Below, piece after piece: positions 3,969 to 61,227 of a stretch of DNA of 64,000 nt. How positions within the stretch are numbered: position 1 is the stretch's first letter; each line of letters starts with the position of its first letter. Under the pieces are notes generated by a model. The model searched no databases and was not told the origin of the DNA. It saw nothing but the letters and a program-made list of their open reading frames with translations. The stretch is from Heterodontus francisci (taxonomy: Eukaryota), in contig NC_090374.1 of NCBI RefSeq assembly GCF_036365525.1, positions 14,673,168 through 14,737,167 on the forward strand. Reading direction: 5' to 3'. A program made the translations under genes and the position numbers.

Positions 3969-6900
3969 TTTTAGAATTAGAATTAGAATATTACAGCGCA
4001 GTACAGGCCCTTCGGCCCTCGATGTTGCGCCGATCATCTGACCTACACTATTCCATTTACATCCATATGTCTATCCAATGACCACTTAAATGCCCTTAAA
4101 GTTGGCGAGTCTACTACTGTTGCAGGCAGGGCGTTCCACGCCCCTACTACTCTCTGCATAAAGAAACTACCTCTGACATCTGTCCTATATCTTTCACCCC
4201 TCAACTTAAAGCTATGTCCCCTCGTGTTTGCCATCCTCATCCGAGGAAAAAGACTCTCACTATCCACCCTATCTAACCCTCTGATTATCTTGTATGTCTC
4301 TATTAAGTCACCTCTCCTCCTCCTTCTCTCTAACGAAAACAACCCCAAGTCCCTCAGCCTTTCCTCGTAAGACCTTCCTTCCATACCAGGCAACATCCTA
4401 GTAAATCTCCTCTGCACCCTTTCCAAAGCTTCGACATCCTTCCTATAATGCGGTGACCAGAACTGCACGCAATACTCCAGGTGCGGCCTCACCAGAGTTT
4501 TGTACAGCTGCATCATGACCCCGTGGCTCTGAAACTCGATCCCCCTACTAATAAAGGCTAACACACCATATGCCTTCTTAACAGCCCTATTAACCTGGGT
4601 AGCAACTTTCAGGGATTTATGTACCTGGATACCAAGATCTCTCTGCTCATCTACACTACCAAGAATCTTCCCATTAGCCCAGTACTCTGCATTGCTGTTA
4701 CTCCTTCCAAAGTGAATCACCTCACACTTCTCCGCATTAAACTCCATTTGCCATCTCTCAGCCCAGCTCTGCAGCCTATCTATGTCCCTCTGTACCCTAC
4801 AACACCCTTCGACACTATCCACAACTCCACCGACCTTCGTGTCATCCGCAAATTTACTAACCCACCCTTCTACACCCTCATCCAGGTCGTTTATAAAAAT
4901 GACAAACAGCAGTGGCCCCAAAACAGAACCTTGCGGTACACCACTAGTAACTAAACTCCAGGATGAACATTTGCCATCAACCACCACCCTCTGTCTTCTT
5001 TCAGCTAGCCAATTTCTGATCCAAAGCTCTAAATCACCTTCAACCCCATACTTGCGTATTTTCTGCAATAGCCTACCGTGGGGAACCTTATCAAACGCCT
5101 TACTGAAATCCATATACACCACATCCACGGCTTTACCCTCATCCACCTGTTTGGTCACCTTCTCGAAAAACTCAATAAGGTTTGTGAGGCACGACCTACC
5201 TTTCACAAAACCGTGCTGACTATCGCAAATGAACTTATTCTTTTCAAGATGATTATAAATCCTGTCTCTTATAACCTTTTCCAACATTTTACCCACAACC
5301 GAAGTAAGGCTCACAGGTCTATAATTACCAGGGCTGTCTCTACTCCCCTTCTTGAACAAGGGGACAACATTTGCTATCCTCCAGTCCTCCGGCACTACTC
5401 CTGTCGACAATGACGACTTGAAGATCAACAACAACGGCTCTGCAATCTCCTCCCTGGCTTCCCAGAGAATCCTAGGATAAATCCCATCTGGCCCAGGGGA
5501 CTTATCTATTTTCACTCTTTCCAAAATTGCTAACACCTCCTCCTTGTGAATCTCAATCCCATCTAGCCTAGTAGCCTGAATCTCAGTATTCTCCTCGGCA
5601 ACATTTTCTTTCTCTACTGTAAATACTGACGAAAAATATTCATTTAACGCTTCCCCTATCTCCTCTGATTCCGCACACAACTTCCCACTACTATCCTTGA
5701 TTGGCCCTGTTCTAACTCTTATCATTCGTTTATTCCTGATATACCTATAGAAAGCCTTAGGGTTTTCTTTGATCCTATCCGCCAATGACTTCTCGTGTCC
5801 TCTCCTTGCTCTTCTTAGCCCTCCCTTTAGATCCTTCCTGGCTAGCTTGTAACTCTCAAGCGCCCTAACTGAGCCTTCACGTCTCATCCTAACATAAGCC
5901 GCCCTCTTCCTCTTGACAAGCGCTTCAACTTCTTGAGTAAACCACGGCTCCCTTGCTCGACAACTTCCTCCCTGCCTGACAGGTACATACTTATCAAGGA
6001 CACGCATTAGCTGCTCCTTGAATAAGCTCCACATTTCGTTTGTGCCCATCCCCTGCAGTTTCCTTCCCCATCCTACACATCCTAAATCTTGCCTAATCGC
6101 GTCATAATTTCCTTTCCCCCAGCTATAATTCTTGCCCTGCGGTATATACCTGTCCCTGCCCATCGCTAAGGTAAACCTAACCGAATTGTGATCACTATCG
6201 CCAAAGTGCTCACCTACATCTAAATCGAACACCTGGCCGGGTTCATTACCCAGTACCAAATCCAATGTGGCATCGCCCCTGGTTGGCCTGTCCACATACT
6301 GTGTCAGAAAACCCTCCTGCACACACTGGACAAAAACAGACCCATCTAAAGTACTCGAACTATAGTATTTCCAGTCAATATTTGGAAAGTTAAAGTCCCC
6401 CATAACCACTACCCTGTTACTCTCGCTCCTGTCGAGAATCATCTTCGCTATCCTTTCCTCTACATCTCTGGAACTATTCGGAGGTCTATAGAAAACTCCC
6501 AACAGGGTGACCTCTCCTCTCCTGTTTCTAACCTCGGCCCATACTACCTCAGTAGACGAGTCCTCAAACGTCCTTTCTGCCGCTGTAATACTTTCCTTGA
6601 TTAACAATGCCACACCCCCCCCTCTTTTACCCTCTTCTCTGTTCTTTCTGAAACATCTAAATCCCGGAACCTGCAACATCCATTCCTGCCCCTGCTCTAC
6701 CCATGTCTCCGAAATGGCCACAACATCAGGATCCCAGGTACCAACCCATGCTGCAAGCTCACCCACCTTATTCCGGATGCTCCTGGCGTTGAAGTAGACA
6801 CACTTTAAACCAAGTTCTTGCTTGCCAGTGCCCTCTTGCGTCCCTGTAACCTTATCCCCTACCTCACTACTCTCAACAGCCTGTACACTGGCACTGCAAT

Positions 6901-7157
6901 TTAGGTTCCCATTCCCCTGCTGATTTAGTTTAAACCCCCCCGAAGAGCACTAACAAATCTCCCCCCCAGGATATTGGTACCCCTCTGGTTCAGGTGAAGA
7001 CCATCCTGTTTGTAGAGGTCCCACCTACCCCAGAAAGAGCCCCAATTATCCAGGAAACCAAAACCCTCCCTCCTACACCATCCCTGCAGCCACGTGTTCA
7101 ACTCCTCTCTCTCCCTATTCCTCTCTTCGCTAGCACGTGGCACAGGCAACAACCCAT
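3969..7157 (-). mobile_element. Young CR1 LINE, 5'-truncated within ORF1, with intact ORF2
   Basis: (TTCTAA)n tail at 3969-3990, uninterrupted ORF2, ORF1 C-terminus (SGNH block DGLHL) at 6925-7157, short AACTT duplication at the junctions. Confidence 0.93.
4043..6934 (-). CDS. CR1 ORF2: APE endonuclease + reverse transcriptase, intact reading frame of about 963 aa
   Basis: 907-aa ORF in the track starts at a GTG; the frame stays open upstream to 6934. Motifs [55 protein letters not shown]. Confidence 0.95.
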   Translation of the reverse strand, partial: FKLNQQGNGNLNCSASVQAVESSEVGDKVTGTQEGTGKQELGLKCVYFNARSIRNKVGELAAWVGTWDPDVVAISETWVEQGQEWMLQVPGFRCFRKNREEGKRGGGVALLIKESITAAERTFEDSSTEVVWAEVRNRRGEVTLLGVFYRPPNSSRDVEERIAKMILDRSESNRVVVMGDFNFPNIDWKYYSSSTLDGSVFVQCVQEGFLTQYVDRPTRGDATLDLVLGNEPGQVFDLDVGEHFGDSDHNSVRFTLAMGRDRYIPQGKNYSWGKGNYDAIRQDLGCVGWGRKLQGMGTNEMWSLFKEQLMRVLDKYVPVRQGGSCRAREPWFTQEVEALVKRKRAAYVRMRREGSVRALESYKLARKDLKGGLRRARRGHEKSLADRIKENPKAFYRYIRNKRMIRVRTGPIKDSSGKLCAESEEIGEALNEYFSSVFTVEKENVAEENTEIQATRLDGIEIHKEEVLAILERVKIDKSPGPDGIYPRILWEAREEIAEPLLLIFKSSLSTGVVPEDWRIANVVPLFKKGSRDSPGNYRPVSLTSVVGKMLEKVIRDRIYNHLEKNKFICDSQHGFVKGRSCLTNLIEFFEKVTKQVDEGKAVDVVYMDFSKAFDKVPHGRLLQKIRKYGVEGDLELWIRNWLAERRQRVVVDGKCSSWSLVTSGVPQGSVLGPLLFVIFINDLDEGVEGWVSKFADDTKVGGVVDSVEGCCRVQRDIDRLQSWAERWQMEFNAEKCEVIHFGRSNSNAEYWANGKILGSVDEQRDLGIQVHKSLKVATQVNRAVKKAYGVLAFISRGIEFQSHGVMMQLYKTLVRPHLEYCVQFWSPHYRKDVEALERVQRRFTRMLPGMEGRSYEERLRDLGLFSLERRRRRGDLIETYKIIRGLDRVDSESLFPRMRMANTRGHSFKLRGERYRTDVRGSFFMQRVVGAWNALPATVVDSPTLRAFKWSLDRHMDVNGIV

Positions 7158-8899
7158 AACTTGCCTCGCACATCCCCTCTAAACTTTGCCCCTCGCACCT
7201 TAAACCTATGTCCCCTAGTAACTGACTCTTCCACCCTGGGGAAAAGCTTCTGACGATCCACTCTGTCCATGCCGCTCATAACTTTGTAAACCTCTATCAT
7301 GTCGCCCCTCCACCTCCGTCGTTCCAGTGAAACCAATCCGAGTTTATCCAGCCTCTCCTCATAGCTAATACCCTCCAGACCAGGCAACATCCTGGTAAAC
7401 CTCCTCTGTACCCTCTCCAAAGCCTCCACGTCCTTCTGGTAGTGTGGCGACCAGAATTGCACGCAATATTCTAAGTGTGGCCTAACTAAGGTTCTGTACA
7501 GCTGCAACATGACTTGCCAATTTTTATACTCTGTACCCCGACCGATGAAGACAAGCATGCCGTATGCCTTCTTGACTACCTTATCCACCTGCGTTGCCAC
7601 TTTCAGTGACCTGTGGACCTGTACGCCCAGATCTCTCTGCCTGTCAATACTCCTAAGGGTTCTGCCATTTACTGTATACCTCCCACCTGCATTAGATCTT
7701 CCAAAATGCATTACCTCACATTTGTCCGGATTAAACTCCATCTGCCATTTCTCCTTTGCTACTTTCCAGTCTGCAGGAACCCTTCCAGAATCGATAGAAT
7801 TTTGAAAGATAACCACCAATGCATTCACTATCTCTATACCAACCTCCTTCAATACTCTGGGATGTAGCTCATCTGGTCTGGAGATTTATCAACTTTCCAT
7901 CCAATTAATTTTTCGAGTACTACCTCTTTAATGATACTAATTACTTTCAGTTCTTCATTTTTACATGTCTCTTGGTTCCCTAGTATTTCTGGGAGATTTT
8001 CTGTGTCTTCCTCTGTGAAGACAGACACAAAGTAATTGTTTAGTCTCTCGCCATTTCCTCATTCTCCACCACAAATTCTCCTGTCTCCACCTTCAATGGA
8101 CCCACATACATCCTTGCTAATCGTTGCCTTTTCACATAGCTAAAGGAGCTTTTACAGTCTGCTTTTATGTTTCTAGAAAGCTTGCATTCATAATCTCTTT
8201 TCCCTTTCTTTATCAGTTTCTTGGTCCTCCTTTGTTGGACTCTAAATTGCTCCCAAACCTCAGGCTTACCACTTTTTCTGGCAACCTTATAAGCCATTTC
8301 CTTTGACCTAATGCATTCTTTAACTTCTTTTGTTAGCCATGGTTGATTCACCTTTCTTGTTGAGTTTTTGTGTCTCAGTGTATATTTCTTGTAAACCATG
8401 TAAAACTTCTTTAAATACGAGCCTTTGCCTGTCTACCGTCAAATCTTTTAATGTGTTTTCCCAATCCACCATAGCAAACTTGCCCCTCATACCTTTATGG
8501 TTTCCTTTGGTCCGATTTAAGTCTCAAGTTTCAGAATTAACTACATTTCTTTCAAACTTAATGTAGCGTTCTAACATATTGTGGTCGCTATTTCCTAATG
8601 GCTCCTTTACAGCAAGGTTATTAATTAGCTCTTTCTCATTACATAATACTAATTCTAAAATAGCCTGATCCCTAGTTGGTTCTTCAATATACTGCTGTCG
8701 AAACCCATCTTGTACACATTCCAGAATTCATCCGTCACAGCATTAGTGCTAATTAGGTTTATCCAATCTATATGTAAATTGAAGTTTCCCATTATTACTG
8801 TATTGCCCATGCTCCATATAACTCTAATTTCCTGGTTTTTACCGTGCCCAACACTACCACGACAGTTTGGTGGCCTATAAACAACTCCCACCAATGTTT

Positions 8900-10066: not shown

Positions 10067-10621
10067 CAATTCTGAGCTAACTCTTGGGTTCCCAACCCCC
10101 TGACAATTTAGTTTAAACCCTCCCCAACAGCACTAGAAAATCTCACTGCGAGGATGTTAGTCCCGGTCCTGCTAATGTGCAACCCATCAATCTTGTACAG
10201 GACCCACCTATCCCAGAACATGTCCCAATGCCTCAGAAATCTGATATCCTCCCTCCTGCACCAGTTCTCCAGCCATGTGTTAAATCGCTTAATCCTCCTA
10301 TTCCTATGCTCACTCGCACGTTGGCATTGGGAATAAACCTGAGATTACTGCTTTTAAGGTCCTGCTTTTTAATTTCATATTTCCAATGTGGGTATGCCAC
10401 AAATGGTCTTGAAATGGCTAAGGATTAAGTTGAAAGATATCTCGGTACATTAATAGTTTCAGTGCTTAACATGTTATCATGTTCAATTGCAAATAAAATG
10501 CTGAGCTACATGGCTACAAGTCCGAGAGAGTGATTCTCAAACTGTACAGTGCTCTGGTTCGGTCATATCTTGATTGCCATGTTCTAGTCACACAGTAAGA
10601 CAGTCAAGTCCTGGAGGCAAG

Positions 10622-37892: not shown

Positions 37893-38877
37893 TGTTGTCT
37901 TTCTTCTTTTGGGCCTCCTTATCTCGAGAGACAATGGATACGCGCCTGGAGGTGGTCAGTGGTTTGTGAAGCAGCGCCTGGAGTGGCTATAAAGGCCAAT
38001 TCTGGAGTGACAGGCTCTTCCACAGGTGCTGCAGAGAAATTTGTTTGTTGGGGCTGTTGCACAGTTGGCTCTCCCCTTGCGCCTCTGTCTTTTTTCCTGC
38101 CAACTACTAAGTCTCTTCGACTCGCCACAATTTAGCCCTGTCTTTATGGCTGCCCGCCAGCTCTGGCGAATGCTGGCAACTGACTCCCACGACTTGTGAT
38201 CAATGTCACACGATTTCATGTCGCGTTTGCAGACGTCTTTATAACGGAGACATGGACGGCCGGTGGGTCTGATACCAGTGGCGAGCTCGCTGTACAATGT
38301 GTCTTTGGGGATCCTGCCATCTTCCATGCGGCTCACATGGCCAAGCCATCTCAAGCGCCGCTGACTCAGTAGTGTGTATAAGCTGGGGGTGTTGGCCGCT
38401 TCAAGGACTTCTGTGTTGGAGATATAGTCCTGCCACCTGATGCCAAGTATTCTCCGAAGGCAGCGAAGATGGAATGAATTGAGACGTCGCTCTTGGCTGG
38501 CATACGTTGTCCAGGCCTCGCTGCCGTAGAGCAAGGTACTGAGGACACAGGCCTGATACACTCGGACTTTTGTGTTCCGTGTCAGTGCGCCATTTTCCCA
38601 CACTCTCTTGGCCAGTCTGAACATAGCAGTGGAAGCCTTACCCATGCGCTTGTTGATTTCTGCATCTAGAGACAGGTTACTGGTGATAGTTGAGCCTAGG
38701 TAGGTGAACTCTTGAACCACTTCCAGAGCATGGTCGCCAATATTGATGGATGGAGCATTTCTGACATCCTGCCCCATGATGTTCGTTTTCTTGAGGCTGA
38801 TGGTTAGGCCAAATTCATTGCAGGCAGACGCAAACCTGTCGATGAGACTCTGCAGGCATTCTTCAGTGTGAGATGGT
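37893..38877 (-). mobile_element. 5'-truncated young RTE-clade LINE with uninterrupted C-terminal ORF
   Basis: 273-aa ORF 37956..38777: FTYLGS, LLYGSEAW, RLRWLGHV, GRPCLRYKD, CSTCGRACHSRIGLYSH. Confidence 0.93.
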
Positions 38878-39065
38878 GCTGAATCAGACCAAGTGTATGG
38901 ACTGTGAATGGAGAGGATGAATAATAGTGTCGAACAGCGACAAGGCTTAATACTGTAGTATTTACAGCATCTAGGTTAGTCCTGTCATATTTACAGTGAA
39001 AAGGGTTAATACTGTAGTATATCCCCATCATGACTAAATATTGCAATGGTCAAAGTGACATGGGT

Positions 39066-40354: not shown

Positions 40355-42020
40355 TGATGATGGGGCTAAAAGAGTTAATTTATGAGGAAAGGTTACATCG
40401 ACTAAGCTTATATACTCTTGCATATTGAAGATGAAGGGGTGATCTGGTTGAGGTGTTTAAGATAATTAAAAGCAGTTGATAGGGTAAATAGAGAGAAACT
40501 ATTTCCTCTGGTGGGAGAGTCCAGAACAAGGGGCCATAACCTTCAAATAAGAGCTAGGCTGTTTGGGGTGATGTCAGGAAGGACTTCTTCACACAAAGGA
40601 TAATGGCATCTGAACCTCTTCCTGGAAAAGCTGTTGAGGCTGGGAATCAATTGAAAACTTCAACACTGAGATTGATAGATTTTTGTTACACAAGGATAAG
40701 AAGGATTATTGGTAAATGGAGTTAAGATGCAGGACAGTCATGTTCTAATTGAATGGCAGGACTTTTTAAAAAAGTAAAGTAACTGTTGTAATGCAGCATA
40801 CATGGAAGCCAAATTGCACACAGCATGATCCCATATACAGCCATTCAAGAATGACCAGATAGTGTGTGTTAGTGGCGTTGGTTCAGAGATAAATATTGGC
40901 CAGGACACTGGGGACAACTCCCATACTCTTCTTCAAAATAGTGTCAGGGGATCATTGACATCCATCTGAGTGGGCAGATGGGACCCCGTTTCATATCTCT
41001 TCTGAAAGATACCACATCCTAAATTGCAGCACTCCCTCAGTTTTCACTGGAGAGTCAGTTTAGATGTTGTGCTCCAGTCTCTGGAGTGGGACCTGAACCT
41101 TTAACCGTCTGATTCAGAAGCAAAAGTGAAATCCACTGAGCTGCTTCTGTTGTACTGCCCACTCTTGCTGTACAACTTCTATACACAGGAGAATATTTTT
41201 TATTCATTCATGGGATGTGGGTGTCACTAGCTAGTCGAGCATTTATTGCACATCCCTAATTACCCTTGAGAAGGTGGTGGTGAGCTGCCTTCTTGAACTG
41301 CTGCAGCCCATGTGGGGTAGGTACACCCACAGTGCTGTTAGGAAAGGAGTTCCAGGATTTTGACCCAGCGACAGTGAAGGAACGGTGATATAGTTCCAAG
41401 TCAGGATAGTGTATGACTTGGAGGGGAACTTGCAGGTGGTGGTGTTCCCATGCATTTGCTGCCCTTGTCCTTCTAGCTGGTAGAGGTTACAGGTTTGGAA
41501 GGTGCTGTCGAAGGTGAGTTGCTGCAGTGCATCTTGTAGATGGTACACACTGCTGCCACTGTGCGTCGATGGTGAAGGGAGTGAATGTTGAAGGTGGTGG
41601 ATGGGGTGCCAATCAAGGAGGCCACATAATCCTGGTTCCAGAAACAAGGCCTTTAAATGGAGTTAAGATGCAGGTCTGCCAGGAGTTAATTGAATGACAG
41701 AACTTTGTTTTTGAAGTGTAGTCACTGTTTTAATGCAGGATACACAGCAGCCAATTTGCACACATTAAGATCCCATAAACAGCAATGAGATAATTATCAG
41801 ACTATGTTTCGGTGTTGTTGGTTCTGAGGTAAATATTGGCCAGGAAATTGGGGGCAACTCCCATACTCTTCCTGAGAGGGCAGTGAGGACCTCGTTTTAA
41901 TATCTCTTCTTAAACACAGCACCTGGAACAGTGCAGCACTCCCTCAGTATTGCATTGAGGTGTCTTGAACCCACAACCTTCTGACTTAGAGGTGAGAGTG
42001 CTAACCACTGAGCCACAGCT
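40355..42020. mobile_element. Mixed old repeats: CR1 3' end (+, 40355-40760), Deu-SINEs (-, ~40770-41140 and ~41700-42020), family B tail (-, 41197-41620)
   Basis: Family-diagnostic motifs shared with other copies in the window. Confidence 0.7.
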
Positions 42021-42098
42021 GATGAGTGTTGTCTGTTACACCACCCACCCTCACTGTGCAACATCTATACACTGGAGAATGTGGGAATGGTTTCTTAC

Positions 42099-42449
42099 CA
42101 TGTACAACCTGCAGCTGTGTCTCAGTCTGGATCAGATGTTGATAATTGTCCAATGATGTGTATTCCACCAGACACAGGTAAGTGTGATTGTCATTCACAC
42201 TCAGCTGGTTTATCCTGGTTGAGGCGTTTCCCTCCTGTGGATTCCCGATGAGTTCGTACCGATTTCCACCATTTGCAGTTGTCCAAGATCCATTTGATTG
42301 GGCTCTGAATGTGACTATGTGTTGGTAGGGCTCCTTCCTCATCCATGTAACAGTGGACAGGGTGCGGTAACTCCTGGGTGTGAACATACAGGGCAATGTA
42401 ACTGAAGCTCCCTCGGTCCCAGTCACCACTGAGACATTTCCATGGGCAG
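42099..42449 (-). CDS. SIGLEC15-like: Second Ig V-set exon of the Siglec-15-like receptor
   Basis: 351-nt phase 1-1 exon (tgtcctttcctcag| ... CAT G|gtaag); EGASVTLPC..VTW..RYELIGNPQEGNAS..DNHTYLCLVEY..TQLQV. Confidence 0.93.
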
Positions 42450-43269
42450 CTGAGGAAAGGACAGACATCAGAATGGATCAGTGTCTTGATGAGAACTTTA
42501 ACTTATTTCAGTTCTGAGCTCTCCCTGTGGTCCAGTAGGTAGAGGCATTGCCCAGTGTAGTACTCAGCCAGTGGAGATCCCAGGGATTGTGGGCTCAGGA
42601 GGCCGGGTAGCAGAACAGATTGAAAGATGGTGACAAAACAGGAAACAGAGGGTAAGAGGTCAGGGACGTTTCTCAGACTAGCAGAAAGTGGGAAGTGGTT
42701 TGACTTGTACTGAATGGTTTTATTAATACAACCCAATGCCCTGTTTGTTTTGTCAATGGCTTCACTGCATTGGTTGTGAATTTTGAGTGATGTGTGTACA
42801 TTAACAGTCTCGATCCTTTTCTCTCTCAGCCACTTTCTGTATTATTCCCTGTAAATGTTCAGTGAATTCCGTGTTGATCCTACCTACCCGCATCACACTG
42901 CATTTGTCTCGGTTAAATATCATTTCCCATTGGTCCCAGAAATGCCCAGACGATTCAATCGATTTGAGGGGCAACATCGGGGGAAGGTTAAGGTGCGGCT
43001 AATGGCACCTCAGCCAGTGCAGCACTCCCTCGGTACTGCCCTGAAGTGTGAGCTGAGCAGCAATGACCCAATTGACAGCGTCTCCCTGTGATCCACCCGC
43101 CAATTCTCCACTGAAATCATTTCAATGTATGAAGCGGTGGAACAGGTCCAGTCAGCTTTGGGCTGGACACTGCAGGCCTACAGCACTGAGACTGTGAGAT
43201 GGACGTAGCTGGTTCTAATAACATGGGAACATATATATCACATTGAAAGATGATTGAGCTTCAATAGGA

Positions 43270-48166: not shown

Positions 48167-49108
48167 ATGGCAGGACAGCACAAAGCCGTGGTTTGCTCCT
48201 CTTGCTGCATGTGGGAATCCGGGAACATTTCCAGTCCCCGGGACCAGCATGTGTGCAGGAAGTGTGTCCAGCTGCATCTCCTGGAAGCTCGGGTTTCAGA
48301 GCTAGAATGGCAGCTGGAAACACTGTGGAGTGTCTGCGAGATTGAGAGTATCATGGAAAGCACATGGAAAGAGGTGGTCACACCGCAGCTGAAGGGACTT
48401 GAGGAAGGAAGGGAATGGGTGACCACCAGACAGTCCAAGAGAATCAGGCAGGTAGTTCAGGAGTCCCCTGGGGTCCCACTTGCAAATCGGTATTCCATTT
48501 TGGAGGCTGATGAGGCTGGTTCCTCCAGGGAGTGCAGACAGAGCCAAGCTTCTGGCACCACAAGCAGCCAGTCTGCACAGGAAGGGGGAAAGAGAGGAAG
48601 AGCAATAGTAATAGGGGATTCTACAGTCAGGGGAACAGATAGGTGCTACTGTGGCCGTCAGCGTGACTCCAGGATGGTGTGTTGCTTCCCTGGTTCCAGG
48701 GTCCAGGATGTCATTGAACGGCTACAGGGCATCCTGAAGGGGGAGGGTGGTAAGGCAGAGGTCATGGTACATGTTGGTACCAATGACATAGGAAGAAAGA
48801 GGGATGAGGTCTTGCATCAAGAGTTCAGGGAGTTAGGCAGCAGACTAAAAAGCAGGACCTCTCGGGTTGTAATCTCTGGATTATTCCCAGTGCCACGTGC
48901 TAGCGTCTATAGAAATAGGAGAATAGCACAGATGAATGCGTGGCTTAAGAATTGGTGCAGGAGGGAGGGTTTTAGATTCCTGGACCACTCGGACCGTTTC
49001 TGGGGAAGGTGGGACCTGTACAAGCGGGACGGTCTACATCTGAACCAGAGGGGGACTAACATCCTTGCTGGCGGGTTTGCTAGTGCTGTTTGGAGGAGTT
49101 TAAACTAA
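48167..49108 (+). CDS. CR1 ORF1p: zinc finger/leucine zipper + SGNH esterase-like domain
   Basis: CSSCCMW..CRKC..LEARVSELE; IGDS, HVGTND and DGLHL blocks; 313 aa uninterrupted. Confidence 0.9.
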   Translation: MAGQHKAVVCSSCCMWESGNISSPRDQHVCRKCVQLHLLEARVSELEWQLETLWSVCEIESIMESTWKEVVTPQLKGLEEGREWVTTRQSKRIRQVVQESPGVPLANRYSILEADEAGSSRECRQSQASGTTSSQSAQEGGKRGRAIVIGDSTVRGTDRCYCGRQRDSRMVCCFPGSRVQDVIERLQGILKGEGGKAEVMVHVGTNDIGRKRDEVLHQEFRELGSRLKSRTSRVVISGLFPVPRASVYRNRRIAQMNAWLKNWCRREGFRFLDHSDRFWGRWDLYKRDGLHLNQRGTNILAGGFASAVWRSLN

Positions 49109-50452
49109 TTTGGCAGGGGGAGGGGACGCAGACTCCGAGCAGAATAGGGACACAGCTAAACACAGGAAAGCAAACAAGTCAGAGGAATACAATGGAAGTA
49201 TGTTTCTAGGGAGTAAGACCAGGATGGATGGCCTCTACTTTAATGCCAGGAGTATTACAGGTAAAACGGATGAGTTAAGGGCAAGGATTGACACGTGGAA
49301 TTGTGATATAGTAGCCATCACGGAGACATGGTTGAGGGAGGGGCAGGATTGGCAGCTCAATATCCCAGGATATAGAATCTTCAGGTGGGACAGAGGGGGG
49401 GGGGGGTAAAAGAGGAGGGGGCATTGCAATATTAGTTAAGGAGTCAGTTACTGCAGTAAGGAGAGATGATATCTTGGAGGGGGCATCAAATGAAGCTTTA
49501 TGGGTAGAGTTTAGGAATAAAAAAGGGACAGCCACATTGCTAGGTGTTTATTATAGACCCCCAGATAGTCAGCGGGAAATTGAGGAGCAAATATGTGCGC
49601 AATTTGCAGAGGTGTGTAAAAATAATAACAGGGTAATTATATTAGGTGATTTCAACTTTTCCAACATTAATTGGGATAGTCATCATGTTAAGGGCTTAGA
49701 TGGAGTGGAGTTCTTAAAATGTATACTGGAGAACTTTTCCGCTCAATATGTAGAGGATCCAACAAGGGAGGATGCAGTGCTGGACCTAATTCTGGGGAAT
49801 GAAGCTGGACAGGTGGTTGATGTGTTGGTGGGGGCGCATTTTGGTGATAGCGACCACAACATGGTACAATTTAAGCTTGTTATGGAGAAAGAAATAGACA
49901 AGTTGCAAAAAAAGGTTTTGGATTGGAGGAGAGCGAATTTTAGTAAAATAAGGCAGGATCTGGCCAAGGTAGACTGGAAAGAGTTACTTGTCGAGAAATC
50001 TACAGAAGAGCAGTGGGGGGCATTCAAAAAGGAAATGGGGAGGGTACAGGCCCAACATGTTCCCTCCAGGGTAATAGGTAGGAGCAACAAGCCCAGAGAA
50101 CCATGGATGACCAACAACATTCAGGATACGATGAGAAGGAAAAGAGAGGCTTTTAGAAAATACAAGGACAGCAAATTAACAGAAGCATTAGTGGAATACA
50201 GAAAGTGTAGGATGGAGCTTAAGAAAGCAATTAGGAGAGCAAAGAAGGGATATGAGAAAGCTCTGGCTGGTAAAAGTAGGGAAAATCCCAAGATATTCTG
50301 TAAGTATATCAATGGGAAGAGGATAACCAGGGAAAGAGTGGGACCCATTAGGGACCAAGGGGTAAATCTGTGGGTGGAGCCAGAGGACATTGGTCAGGTG
50401 TTGAACGAATACTTCACATCTGTCTTCACCCAAGAGAAAGAGGATGTAGATT

Positions 50453-53470: not shown

Positions 53471-53793
53471 ATTATTACTGAAAGGAATTGATCTAATTCG
53501 TAGTTGCCTCATTCAAATGGCACCCCCTAGAGCTTGGTCAATGAGTGTCTGTGGACTATTTGACTGTGAGAGCCTCACAGGAAGGTCCAATGTCTCATTC
53601 AATGTCCAATAAGACACCTTCCTGCAGGAGTGTCTGGAAAGTGATCAGGAGCAGGAATCCCGGGCAATATTCCCCTTTCAAAGCCCGGGATTGCTGAGAG
53701 TTTATTTACCCGTGTGGTTCAGGACCAGACCAGGTGGAGCCTTTAGCCATTGAGCTATCGGGGCAGCTGCAGCCCCTGAACATTGTTCCTCAC

Positions 53794-54177
53794 CTTCCAC
53801 TCTCAGACTCGTTAGTTTCAGTGTTTGATGTTTTCCAACAGTGAGCTCCACACGACACCGATAATGACCACTGTCCGCCCGGATCAGCCGCTCCATCATT
53901 ATTGAGACATCTTTGTTACTGAAGTTCCCCACGAATCTGAATCGATTCCCGCCGTCCTGCTGTATCACATTCTCACACAGCTCACTCTGTGAATGGCCTG
54001 GACCAGAATATGTACACTTAAAAATAACATTGTTACGGCCTTTGTACCATATCACAGAGCCGGTGACCGTCTGATCAGTGTGTGGGTGGGTGAAAGTACA
54101 CGACAAGACAGCGGACCCTCCTTCCTCAACACTCACTATATCCGCAGCGCTCATTGTCCAACCATTAGCAGAAACCT
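53794..54177 (-). CDS. SIGLEC15-like: N-terminal Ig V-set exon, Siglec-15-like sialic-acid-binding domain
   Basis: 384-nt phase 1-1 exon (tctctctccacag| ... GAA G|gtgagg). WTMS..EGGSAVLSCTFTHPH, VIFKC...SELC, RFRFVGN..KDVSIMMERLIRADSGHYRCRVEL parallels Siglec-15 (WSMQ..AVLPCTFTHPH, VFRC..SELC, RFRLLGN..NDLSLRVERL..YFCRVEF), including four Cys and the essential Arg. Confidence 0.93.
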
Positions 54178-54319
54178 CTGTGGAGAGAGAGAGAATATTA
54201 AAAGCGCGTGGGGACAGAGGTTAGGGATCGAAAACAAACTGCGACACAATATACTGAGTCTGTTATATAGTGACAACATCCAGTCAGATTGGGATAGTTT
54301 ATACACTGACTTTGGACAC

Positions 54320-56705: not shown

Positions 56706-57925
56706 GGTTTTTCGAGAAGGTGACCAAACAGGTGGATGAGGGTAAAGCCGTGGATGTGGTGTATATGGATTTCAGTAAGGCGTTTGATAAGGTTCCCCAT
56801 GGTAGGCTATTGCAGAAAATACGGAAGTATGGGGTTGAAGGTGATTTAGAGCTTTGGATCAGAAATTGGCTAGCTGAAAGAAGACAGAGGGTGGTGGTTG
56901 ATGGCAAATGTTCATCCTGGAGTTTAGTTACTAGTGGTGTACCGCAAGGTTCTGTTTTGGGGCCACTGCTGTTTGTCATTTTTATAAATGACCTGGAAGA
57001 GGGTGTAGAAGGGTGAGTTAGTAAATTTGCGGATGACACGAAGGTCGGTGGAGCTGTGGATAGTGCAGAAGGATGTTGTAGGGTACAGAGGGACATAGAT
57101 AGGCTGCAGAGCTGGGCTGAGAGATGGCAAATGGAGTTTAATGCGGAGAAGTGTGAGGTGATTCACTTTGGAAGGAGTAACATCAATGCAGAGTACTGGG
57201 CTAATGGGAAGATTCTTGGTAGTGTAGATGAGCAGAGAGATCTTGGTGTCCAGGTACATAAATCCCTGAAAGTTGCTACCCAGGTTAATAGGGCTGTTAA
57301 GAAGGCATATGGTGTGTTAGCTTTTATTAGTAGGGGGATCGAGTTTCGGAGCCACGAGGTCATGATGCAGCTGTACAAAACTCTGGTGAGACCGCACCTT
57401 GAGTATTGCGTGCAGTTCTGGTCACCGCATTATAGGAAGGATGTGGAAGCTTTGGAAAGGGTGCAGAGGAGATTTACTAGGATGTTGCCTGGTATGGAGG
57501 GAAGGTCTTACGAGGAAAGGCTGAGGGACTTGGGGTTGTTTTCGTTAGAGAGAAGGAGGAGGAAAGGTGACTTAATAGAGACATACAAGATAATCAGAGG
57601 GTTAGATAGGGTGGATAGTGAGAGTCTTTTTCCTCGGATGATGATGGCAAACACGAGGGGACATAGCTTTAAGTTGAGGGGTGAAAGATATAGGACAGAT
57701 GTCAGAGGTAGTTTCTTTACGCAGAGAGTAGTAGGGGCGTGGAACGCCCTGCCTGCAACAGTAGTAGACTCGCCAACTTTAAGGGCATTTAAGTGGTCAT
57801 TGGATAGACATATGGATGAAAATGGAATAGTGTAGGTCAGATGGTTTCACAGGTCGGCGCAACACCGAGGGCCGAAGGGCCTGTACTGCGCTGTAATGTT
57901 CTAATTCTAAAAAAAAAAAATTCTA
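56706..57925 (+). mobile_element. 5'-truncated young CR1, same family as 3969-7157
   Basis: Near-identical to the reverse complement of 3969-5172; one TGG>TGA stop at 57014-57016; TTCTAA/A-rich tail. Confidence 0.93.
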
Positions 57926-59040
57926 AGAATTTTTGTGTCCTTTGAGAAATTGGCAAGGCAGCTAAAATGGCCAGCTGAGACCTGGCCTCTTTTACTGCAA
58001 AGCAAGCTCAGTGGAAAAGCCCATGAGGTCTATTCCTTGTTGCCAGATGAGAGTTCATCAAATTATGAAGGGACAAAAAGTGCTATCCTCGAGGCATATG
58101 AATTAGTATCCGAAGCCTATCGCCAAAAGTTTAAAACCCTCAAGAAGCAAGCTGATCAAACTTATCTGGAGTTTGAAAGAAGTAAGCAGCTGGCTTTTGA
58201 CCAGTGGCTGAGGGCTCTTAAAGTACAGCTCAGCTATGAGAATCTCAGACAAGTAATTCTGTTAGAGGAATTTAAACATTCTCTCCCACTCTCCATAAGG
58301 ACCCATGTAGAGGAGCAGCGGGTTCATAGAGCCCGGCAAGCGGCCGTTCTGGCCAATGAATTTGCTTTAATTTATAAGTTGGTTTCCCGGGGAGAACCTT
58401 TCCTAGTCACCCCCACAAATCCGAAAAGGACAAAGGGTGGGAAGGTGATAGGAGCCCAAGCAGTCCTGGAAGAGAAAGGAAAGCAGGAGACACAGGGACC
58501 CTCCTCTCACCAAAAAGAAGGTGCTGTGAGCAAGAGTGAGACCCAGAGACCTTAGTGCTTCCATTGTAATAAAGCAGGGCGTTTAAAAGCTGGCTGCTGG
58601 AAACTAAAGGGAAAACTTGTAGGGTTAATCAGATCACACCCACGCAGTGAAGAAGTGAACCTGATGGAAAGCACAGCAGAACAAGCTGTGGCTTTAACTG
58701 CAGCGAGAGTGAGACCCAGGAAGCTTACTGCTGCAAGTGCAGAAAAAGTTAGTCGGATTCCTGAAGGCTATCAGGGTTTTGTGTCCGAAGGGAAAATAAC
58801 CCCATACCCCTCGAGTGGGGCAAGCAAGCCCTTAGTGATTCTCAGGGAATCAGGGGCCACTATATCCCTTTTACTAGGAAAAGGCCTGACCTTTCCCCCA
58901 GAGAGTGCAGTGAACACCAAAACTATGGCGAATGGTATTGGAGGGCAGTGTATGCCTGTACCTGCACAGAGGGTGCACTCAGTTTCGGGACCGGTGACCG
59001 TAGGGATTGTCCCTAGTTTGCCTGTGGATGGGGTTGACGT

Positions 59041-61227
59041 TGTTAGCGGGAATGAATCTAGAAGAATCACTCAACATTCAGGTCTGCTCCAATGTCAAAC
59101 AGTTAATTGAGTTACGCCAGCGGGGAGCAGGTCACTGGGCTGTCCAGATGCCTCTCCACCGAACAAAGGAGCAAAAGCATCAATACTTATACATTTTCAA
59201 ACAGTTACTCAGCCCATCCTGGCTGGACATGGTCCAGTCACAACAATTATAGATCATATACATTGATTATTCGAGCCAATAGAAGTGGTTACTAGGCATG
59301 GACTGCACAACCGGCCCATAGGCAGATAGGGGATTACTCATGATGTTTTCCATTCCCTCTTATCCATTATCTTTAATGAGTCTTTGTTTGAATTTATGTT
59401 ACTCAGCTCCTGTGTGGAATGTGGTCAAGTTGGCTAAGCTCCATGATGCCTTGCAACCTCTTCATTGTTCACTAAGATTATACGTTACTGGTTACTCAAA
59501 TAACATTTAAACAGTATGATATTTACTGCAGGTGCCTCTGCGCTTGGGAATACCCGACAACAATCCCCTCTTTCGGTAGGGAGACTAACCCCAGTCTCCT
59601 TAACCGACACCATTTTTTTTTAACCCTTTAAACTCGCCCGGTATTCCCTGCTTCAACCACACTGGCCAGTCACGTGATTTCAGGAATTCCGGTCATATTA
59701 TATCATATTAATGTGATCCAAATGGCTTAGCTCCCCAGATAGACAAATTGTCTCTCTTGCTTTGGCTCTAGGTTTTACCTGCCTTCACCGCACATATCGT
59801 CTGTATGATCGGCAGGCCAGTATGCCCCATGTTATGGCCAGTATCAACTGTATTCCAACTAGCACATGAGAAATTATCCGAATCCAGGGGTGGATATTCA
59901 CATTCATTCCCCAATCCCAAATCTTCTCCCACCAGCTCCGGTTCTGCAGTTCTGTGTTAGTATCTTTCTCTAGCTTTTTGATTTTTGCCTGCAGTTGGTG
60001 GTAGAGTTTTACGGATTCCCTTAGTACCTCGGCCAGGTGTGGGATGGGGACTGGTTCTGGTTCCTCGTAATCCTGTCGGTGGTCATGGAGGTAATCAGTG
60101 ATGTTGATGGTCTCGGTATCTCTGCGCCAAACCTGGATAATTCGGGCTTGCCCTATAGTGACGGGTCGTAAGGGCGTAAAGCAAACATTAGGAAACGGGA
60201 TAGGGCATTGTAGATTATTGTAGCGGTAGGAACTTTCTGTAGTGGAGACGCAATATTTCCCTTTACCTCCATATCCTGTTCTTGCGAAATGCATGGGGGC
60301 AGGTATGATTTCTACGACACAACCGTCTGTTCGATTAAACCCACATTCATCCAATTCTCCCTGTCCCATTGGGTGTGGACATAGTGTAATGTCTCCCCTC
60401 TGCTTGCATCCCGTAAGGGAAATTCCATATAGTGTATTGTTCCTGAGTATGGCAGAGGTTTCAGTTAAATAGTAACGGAGGGAGGTGTTACCCCGTACGA
60501 CCCCAATATTTTCCAATTAGTAGTGGGGAAATGGCCCTGAGTCCCATGCTACTGTGGGGATCATCAGGACTACCCCCACTCCGGTATCTTTGCCCAATTC
60601 GCAGTCTGGGATCACTGGATATACTCTGGTGAGTCCTTTCAGTGTACAATTGTCCAGTGTACCTTTCCTCTCTGCTAATCGAGCTAAATGTGGGCTGTCT
60701 ATCCAATCGGGCAGCTCCTCCCTTTGGATCTGATCGAGATTGTGTCATATCTGTCCCACCATCCATAAGCCATAAGCGTGGCAGAGTTGTCCCTGCCTTA
60801 GCTTTCCGGCATCTTCCTTTTCTCTATCTGTGACGTGATTGATGGTCTTGGCATGGGCTTCTAATACCGTAATTCCATCTAATTGTATTCCCATGCCCTC
60901 TTCTCCTAGATTGGCCTGATCCGCCTGATTTTCCTCGGCTCTCTCTAAGAGTTCCTTCATTACTCCTTTCAGTCGTTCTACCTTTTCATTTAGACCTTGT
61001 ATGTCCAGTGAGTTTATGACGGAAGTACCAGTATTGACTCTAGTAGCAACATCGTTAACTACCCCCCTTTTTGTTCTATAAAGCTGATCCTGGCCTTGAA
61101 ATCTAGTGGCACCCATGGCATTGGCAGCCTGCTGCATTACAACCTTACTTCATACACTATACATATTTCTTGCCTGTTCTGTACAATATCCCGGCATTTG
61201 TATTCCGGGTCAGAATACCCGACAACA
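59041..61227 (-). mobile_element. Internally deleted env-bearing LTR element (endogenous retrovirus-like): 15-bp 5' LTR stub, env, PPT, 522-bp 3' LTR
   Basis: TSD ACGT at 59037-59040 / 61228-61231; LTR 59041-59562 with TGTT..AACA ends; PPT GAAAGAGGGGAT at 59563-59574; 61213-61227 is identical to 59548-59562. Confidence 0.9.
59785..61209 (-). pseudogene. env: Envelope/fusion glycoprotein pseudogene (F-type class I fusion protein architecture)
   Basis: One colinear frame of 475 codons with three in-frame stops (61150-61152, 60745-60747, 60517-60519); furin-type RTKR at 61066-61077, heptad repeats, Cys-rich domain, Trp-rich membrane-proximal region, C-terminal TM and basic tail. Confidence 0.85.

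Follow-up and report, generated by a model that had tools for sequence, protein, structure and literature searches.

In human L1 and silkworm SART1, a separate ORF2 protein is made from an AUG near the stop codon of the first open reading frame (ORF1). A classical -1 ribosomal frameshift signal consists of an X_XXY_YYZ heptamer plus a 3′ structure that is also needed (PMC3542737), and U_UUA_AAC is one of the heptamers on which mammalian ribosomes shift most readily (PMC5009743). Among long interspersed nuclear elements (LINEs), +1 shifting or reinitiation has been suggested for those of Paramecium; because of these and of TRE5-A and TRE3-A of Dictyostelium, frameshifting in LINEs is not without precedent. 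For CR1, which dominates among the retrotransposons of most vertebrates (PMC13343379), translation of ORF2 is not addressed in the literature searched, where reviews generalize from L1 and SART1. The searches found no paper on CR1 frameshifting, the original CR1 papers of 1997-2003, which may mention the overlap, lying outside their reach, and frameshifting goes unmentioned in the excerpted text and supplement of PMC13343379 and in a term search of PMC8665684. Here, we analyzed a 64,000-nucleotide (nt) stretch of the Heterodontus francisci genome, referred to as the window (contig NC_090374.1, positions 14,673,168 to 14,737,167), in which a sequence-only reading had proposed that CR1 joins ORF1 to an ORF2 without an ATG by -1 frameshifting. 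A survey of CR1 families in this genome suggests that ORF2 is probably made in this way, at U_UUA_AAC, as an ORF1-ORF2 fusion and with a nonclassical stimulator.

The focal element is a young, 5′-truncated CR1 copy of family A on the minus strand of the window (positions 3971 to 7156), lying inside the 3′ end of an older CR1 and 99.6% identical over 3,186 nt to the intact copy L415. Loose ends of contigs from public sequencing runs at 7156/7158 match its 5′ edge, its 3′ tail consists of three ATTCTA repeats (3972 to 3989, minus strand), and AAGTT is a likely target-site duplication (5′ copy, 7158 to 7162; 3′ copy, 3968-3964; minus strand). Family A is young (mean divergence, 0.4%), its 35-nt junction has 1,875 exact genome matches, and its intact copies (L415, L417, and L418) carry an ORF1 of 311 amino acids (aa) plus a 963-codon -1 frame. 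The canonical traits of CR1 are present, i.e., an esterase ORF1 (PF13472; E, 7e-15), an ORF2 with apurinic/apyrimidinic endonuclease (APE) and reverse transcriptase (RT), a short 3′ repeat tail, and 5′ truncation. By eye, the junctions look similar to those in published CR1 consensuses from sharks and rays, and the ORF1 homologues near the top of the matches, where named, come from sharks and rays. Since the focal copy is truncated inside ORF1, leaving about 75 codons that encode the end of the SGNH esterase (DGLHL to GGLN and the stop; 6925 to 7156, minus strand), the fusion could not be made from this copy itself.

On the minus strand, ORF1 ends in GGT TTA AAC TAA, as the sequence-only reading had stated, with the slippery heptamer U_UUA_AAC (TTTAAAC, 6928 to 6934) in ORF1 phase and directly abutted by the TAA stop (6925 to 6927), which in the -1 frame is read through C-UA as Leu. 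A -1-frame TAG six codons ahead of the heptamer (6950 to 6952) limits the overlap between ORF1 and ORF2, and the G-rich tract GGGGAATGGG (6908 to 6917) codes for GxG at -1 codons 7 and 9. The -1 frame is indeed open through endonuclease and RT, from 6949 to a stop at 4045-4043 (968 codons stop to stop, of which 963 count from the heptamer as ORF2; 4043 to 6934, minus strand), and it matches Exo_endo_phos (PF03372) and RVT_1 (PF00078), corresponding to the APE endonuclease and the RT. The linker leading up to the endonuclease (6791 to 6924, minus strand) contains neither a stop nor a Met, and its sole near-cognate start is an ACG at 6841-6839. Counted from the heptamer, the Asn of the NARS motif is codon 49 (6790-6788) and the Glu of the SETW motif is codon 76; we take both, from work on L1 and APE enzymes, to be catalytic residues. 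The first ATG is codon 86 (6679-6677), 37 codons beyond the endonuclease Asn, and the claim that no ATG precedes these two motifs was therefore correct.

To place this junction in its genomic context, 388 loci were gathered from the same 6.0-Gb genome by means of the ORF1 end including its final LN (a heptamer-biased source used for family B only), endonuclease peptides, Pfam families, ORF1 peptides minus the last 10 codons, linker patterns, and 60 arbitrary 10-kb stretches. Junctions were anchored with a hidden Markov model of ORF1 without its last 10 codons, yielding 274 junctions; two more were dropped at locus ends. TTTAAAC plus a stop was kept in 211 of these 274 decayed single copies and at 7/9 junctions from the arbitrary stretches, and the endonuclease lay in the -1, 0, and +1 frames in 154, 46, and 45 of 245 single copies, respectively, as expected for decaying copies. 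Family majorities were then built from the 13 clusters with at least four members. TTTAAAC followed by TAA, TAG, or TGA ends ORF1 in all 13 majorities (TAA in 6, TAG in 5, and TGA in 1 of 12 majorities), and the endonuclease is in the -1 frame in 10 of them as well as in family K, scored by its modal A run, for a total of 11/13. The frame 0 reading of the 10-copy family K majority was rejected as an artifact of an unstable A run, the commonest length of which gives -1 (45 of the 100 listed among 202 matches, by hand count). Clusters J (mixed, old, and 15% diverged) and P (three usable copies) were excluded from phase counts; cluster J (e.g., L353 and L370) looks like a subfamily with a duplicated or chimeric linker of about 375 nt. 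An ORF2 in the 0 or +1 frame, set beforehand as a refuting outcome, was found in none of the phase-resolved families, and the conservation of heptamer and phase per family supports the proposed -1 fusion, making frameshifting itself likely on sequence grounds.

The junction is conserved at the nucleotide level beyond what the protein needs, according to a codon control on 12 majorities (the upstream codon table omits family H because of an extra G in its majority). The terminal Leu codon is TTA in 12/12 majorities, while the invariant Leu residues at positions -24, -22, and -14 use 5, 4, and 4 codons, respectively, and the codon ahead of the terminal Leu ends in T in 12/12, across Gly, Ser, Thr, Ala, and Val. 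All 12 also have a -1-frame stop, formed by an NNT+AGN pair, exactly six codons before the heptamer, so the frame switch must fall within the last eight codons of ORF1. The recoding-type signal is real and strongly conserved. An upstream -1-frame stop is also seen by eye in some published consensuses, as a TGA in an alligator row, and may belong to the same cassette.

It could be argued that LN-stop and GxG reflect protein constraint or an inherited accident, ORF2 being expressed from an RNA that is separate, spliced, or initiated internally, e.g., through the CAG/G after the stop in shark families. LN is in fact kept at the protein level: of 74 ORF1 homologues, 46 stop 22 to 30 aa beyond the DxxH motif, 41 of them with LN as the last two residues, including proteins named as from rays, coelacanth, turtles, and a mormyrid fish. 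Eight more distant esterase ORF1-like proteins with longer tails (among P0058-P0068, P0053, and P0066) end in LN as well, and in several families an AG precedes the G tract and the linker contains in-frame ATGs. However, the synonymous freedom found at other Leu residues is missing at the terminal one. In addition, residues without an NNT codon (M, W, K, E, or Q) precede LN in 0/41 homologues and occur one residue further up in 22/33. Splicing in particular finds no trace in contigs of four public runs, presumed to derive from RNA and informative for presence only, which over 6300-7200, with part of their loose ends listed, contain no joints, no listed junction indel, and no listed heptamer change. 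Likewise, among 60 copies from families A and D selected by their endonuclease, none has the 5′ untranslated region (UTR) joined to CAG/G, family D lacks the AG, and the one internal deletion, a clean 1,022-nt loss in family-A copy L042 that joins the 5′ UTR to the ORF1 3′ end, is not GT-AG. We consequently regard this explanation as very improbable. Among the homologues, two proteins end in LK, which is compatible with U_UUA_AAA, and P0012, labeled a Pseudomonas aeruginosa SGNH hydrolase, is a CR1 ORF1 on a 4-kb contig and likely reflects host contamination of that record. Metagenome, viral, and prokaryote contigs scanned with the ORF1 alignment gave distant SGNH matches only and no CR1 junctions; L184, which reads on beyond the LN position, was left out.

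The site lies between homopolymer runs (G7 in family A), and runs within the linker prove unstable from copy to copy, which would suit transcriptional slippage, i.e., the addition of one base by RNA polymerase in the G, U, or A runs of the junction, so that in part of the mRNAs the two frames would be fused into one. Nevertheless, the T3 and A3 runs are short, the upstream G run is not conserved (families D, I, J, and N are without it), and the run contigs list no insertion or deletion at the junction. Slipped RNAs would moreover retrotranspose and leave many +1 copies, yet the 137-nt linker length is kept in 22/25 family-A copies, and slippage by the polymerase appears scarcely credible to us.

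The linker itself is open in the -1 frame. Across the 10 phase-resolved majorities, linkers range from 137 to 233 nt and share 34 to 58% identity (median, 45% versus 63% at the endonuclease start), and they contain no stop in the -1 frame versus 1 to 9 and 3 to 12 in the other two frames (shuffle P, 0.004 to 0.10 each). Gly is found at -1 codons 7 and 9 in 12/13 majorities, with synonymous variation (GGG/GGC and GGG/GGA/GGT). No Met precedes the endonuclease Asn in 5/10 families (A, C, E, H, and I), and no upstream ATG, which had likewise been set beforehand as a refuting outcome, is conserved. The heptamer, its phase, the adjacent stop, and the open -1 linker thus occur together with the lack of a usable ATG in half of the phase-resolved families.

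Termination-reinitiation, the established route for L1 and SART1 (PMC2881922), would account for part of this pattern. Ribosomes would restart in the -1 frame beside the ORF1 stop, at a non-AUG codon where no AUG is available, and release a free ORF2 protein (ORF2p). Reinitiation can be AUG independent in L1 (PMC5009743) and in caliciviruses, it needs no 3′ structure, and none was found; the linker would likewise stay open under a restart at the stop, and a UGGGA lies 96 nt upstream in families A, B, E, and F. On the other hand, an X_XXY_YYZ fixed at the nucleotide level over five different preceding residues is left unexplained. No AUG overlaps or adjoins the ORF1 stop, the nearest in-frame Met being codon 10 in one family, and no start-like codon is common to the families at the stop, where CTA or CTG is found; nor was a shared near-cognate start found in the resolved majorities. 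UGGGA of the type seen in termination upstream ribosome-binding sites is absent in family C and scattered elsewhere (-16, -39, -55, -81, and -96), and at -96 it encodes a conserved Trp-Asp pair and falls outside the 40- to 90-nt range. Reinitiation is therefore unlikely in our judgment, and -1 frameshifting remains the reading we favor.

Several observations weigh against frameshifting. The sequence-only reading had suggested folding the sequence that follows; in 45- and 70-nt windows downstream of the junction in 13 families, no significant 3′ hairpin was predicted (folding z-scores, -1.4 to +1.1), and predicted simple pseudoknots scored within shuffles. A conserved G-quadruplex was not found (G4Hunter scores exceed shuffles in 1/13 families and reach 0.92 in family A), nor was a long-range pairing partner conserved across families. 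Hairpin, H-type pseudoknot, G-quadruplex, and long-range pairing were accordingly set aside as stimulators for want of consistent support, and with no predicted 3′ structure, the second half of the classical signal (PMC3542737) is missing from the predictions. The G-rich tract, which that reading had noted, is in part accounted for by the conserved GxG in the -1 frame, and no stimulator fold is detectable there. As to the survey, phase was readable in 11/13 clusters, J and P not among them, and family counts are not independent because the families share ancestry. Four more third positions in the last 28 codons (-27, -21, -9, and -4) are invariant too, so AAC alone is weak evidence. A Met does precede the Asn in 5 of the 10 families, at nonhomologous positions, and in the 6-copy majority of family I, the -1 frame meets a stop five codons short of the Asn, just beyond the linker window that was tested; one copy reads Gln there. 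Finally, 10/38 family-D copies carry a frame-breaking 2-nt linker deletion (160 versus 553 exact genome matches). That it marks an amplifying frame-0 lineage was rejected: the deletion is polyphyletic, with 9 changes on the tree versus a shuffled mean of 9.1, and, because the changes are as many as with shuffled labels and both single-nucleotide polymorphism backgrounds carry it, it seems to be an error that recurs and not a lineage. Present in about 22% of exact matches (160/713; e.g., L198, L221, and L224), it is possibly an RT slippage hotspot.

With respect to G-richness, the junction ranks high within the element in families D, F, E, and N and not in A. In families A, C, E, F, G, and K, the heptamer is flanked on each side by G runs that could form a G-quadruplex across the slip site and that are absent in D, I, J, and N; according to the excerpted text of PMC5009743, natural stimulation of frameshifting by G-quadruplexes was not known in 2016.

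If frameshifting operates here, a minority of ribosomes would slip back one base on the heptamer, with tRNA-Leu and tRNA-Asn re-pairing from UUA-AAC to UUU-AAA, and the stop would then be read as CUA or CUG, both Leu. Most ribosomes would terminate and release free ORF1 protein (ORF1p), the ratio between the two products being set much as for Gag and Gag-Pol. The predicted family-A fusion would comprise 311 + 961 = 1,272 aa, with the junction ...GGLN/LNQQGNG.... Since no classical 3′ pseudoknot is predicted, the pause probably does not come from one, and the likeliest stimulator would be the adjacent stop through its slow decoding, to which the G-rich tract 7 to 10 nt downstream perhaps contributes.

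The heptamer-stop motif is not restricted to H. francisci. Among the published consensuses in the supplement of PMC13343379, searched over the first 400 letters of each and with no denominator for the search, TTTAAAC plus a stop lies at ORF1 ends in 18/21 rows by eye (21 of the 23 matches were listed). Twelve row codes carry the motif (AllMis, CroPor, PogVit, AquCat, LatCha, AmiCal, AldAff, CalMil, HypSab, PriPec, ScyCan, and SquAca), and we read them as crocodilians, a lizard, a frog, coelacanth, bowfin, a teleost, and chondrichthyans. A search of the same supplement by upstream ORF1 motifs gave 4/4, which is not independent since the motifs were drawn from rows already examined, and the phase of ORF2 is not readable in these rows because the consensuses drop bases. 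More tentatively, at what we judge to be somewhat less than an even chance, a single -1 cassette (upstream -1 stop, U_UUA_AAC, ORF1 stop, and G-rich tract, with no pseudoknot) may have been used by the dominant retrotransposon of most vertebrates since before the split of sharks and bony fish, about 460 million years ago. In such a cassette, the terminating ribosome, a factor binding the G tract, or a G-quadruplex would bring about slippage; the product would be a Gag-Pol-like ORF1p-ORF2p fusion by which, unlike in L1, endonuclease and RT are held on the ORF1 multimer.

Two further CR1 copies in the window end ORF1 in the same way, as had been claimed. In a second, interrupted fragment on the minus strand (10108 to 10117), the heptamer (10117-10111) is followed by TAA; this copy has no endonuclease match within 700 nt, and its phase is thus not readable. 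On the plus strand, a family-B ORF1 of 313 aa with a Lipase_GDSL_2 match (48167 to 49108) ends in the heptamer at 49099-49105 and TAA. Its endonuclease is out of frame, for which a linker indel had been postulated, and relative to its family this copy indeed misses one G about 85 nt past the heptamer (near 49184), a private 1-nt deletion; the family-B linker has 137 nt, the -1 phase, in 29/36 copies. Overall, TTTAAACTA occurs four times in the window versus 0.53 expected, a count that 0/100 shuffles reach, and the fourth occurrence (21059-21051, minus strand) has no CR1 context by eye. Also by eye, other decayed LINEs are found at 13.8-16.8 kb, 28.4-33.1 kb, and 37956-38975 (a second CR1-group type, Tx1/L1-like, and RTE-like), and open frames at 42001-42477 (plus strand) and 53702-54220 (minus strand) resemble immunoglobulin V-set exons of host genes. 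Broken frames at 57911-59110 (plus strand) and 59785-60516 (minus strand) look like gag-protease of the Gypsy/long terminal repeat (LTR) type, with a possible envelope-like stretch.

If this interpretation is correct, the CR1 ORF2 protein would be redefined as a fusion of about 1,270 aa, and the annotation of intact or active copies would change, given that ATG-based ORF calls cut off the catalytic N terminus of the endonuclease. It would also help in designing working CR1 retrotransposition assays and would add a natural -1 site seemingly without a classical RNA stimulator. The element itself is like canonical vertebrate CR1 in its SGNH-esterase ORF1, its APE and RT ORF2, its short 3′ repeat tail, and its 5′ truncation (PMC13343379 and PMC3905857). 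Its junction shares with viral -1 frameshifting at U_UUA_AAC, as in coronaviruses of the infectious bronchitis virus type, arteriviruses, and retroviral gag-pol, an identical heptamer in the right phase (PMC3542737 and PMC5009743), which ends a structural-type ORF and is followed in the -1 frame by a replicative enzyme without its own start codon. Unlike these viral sites, CR1 has no predicted pseudoknot or stem-loop 5 to 9 nt downstream in the 13 families, its 0-frame stop abuts the heptamer, and the host is a non-LTR retrotransposon. As for human L1 and silkworm SART1, in which ORF2 depends on ORF1 translation (PMC2881922), the RNA is that of a bicistronic LINE; unlike in those two elements, the CR1 ORFs overlap in the -1 frame through a slippery heptamer, and half of the phase-resolved families are without an AUG before the Asn. 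Among APE-type non-LTR elements, a -1 frameshift is required for ORF2 of Dictyostelium TRE5-A and TRE3-A, according to a review legend (PMC5911963). CR1 differs from these in belonging to another clade, in having another type of ORF1, and in a canonical heptamer that is kept across jawed vertebrates.

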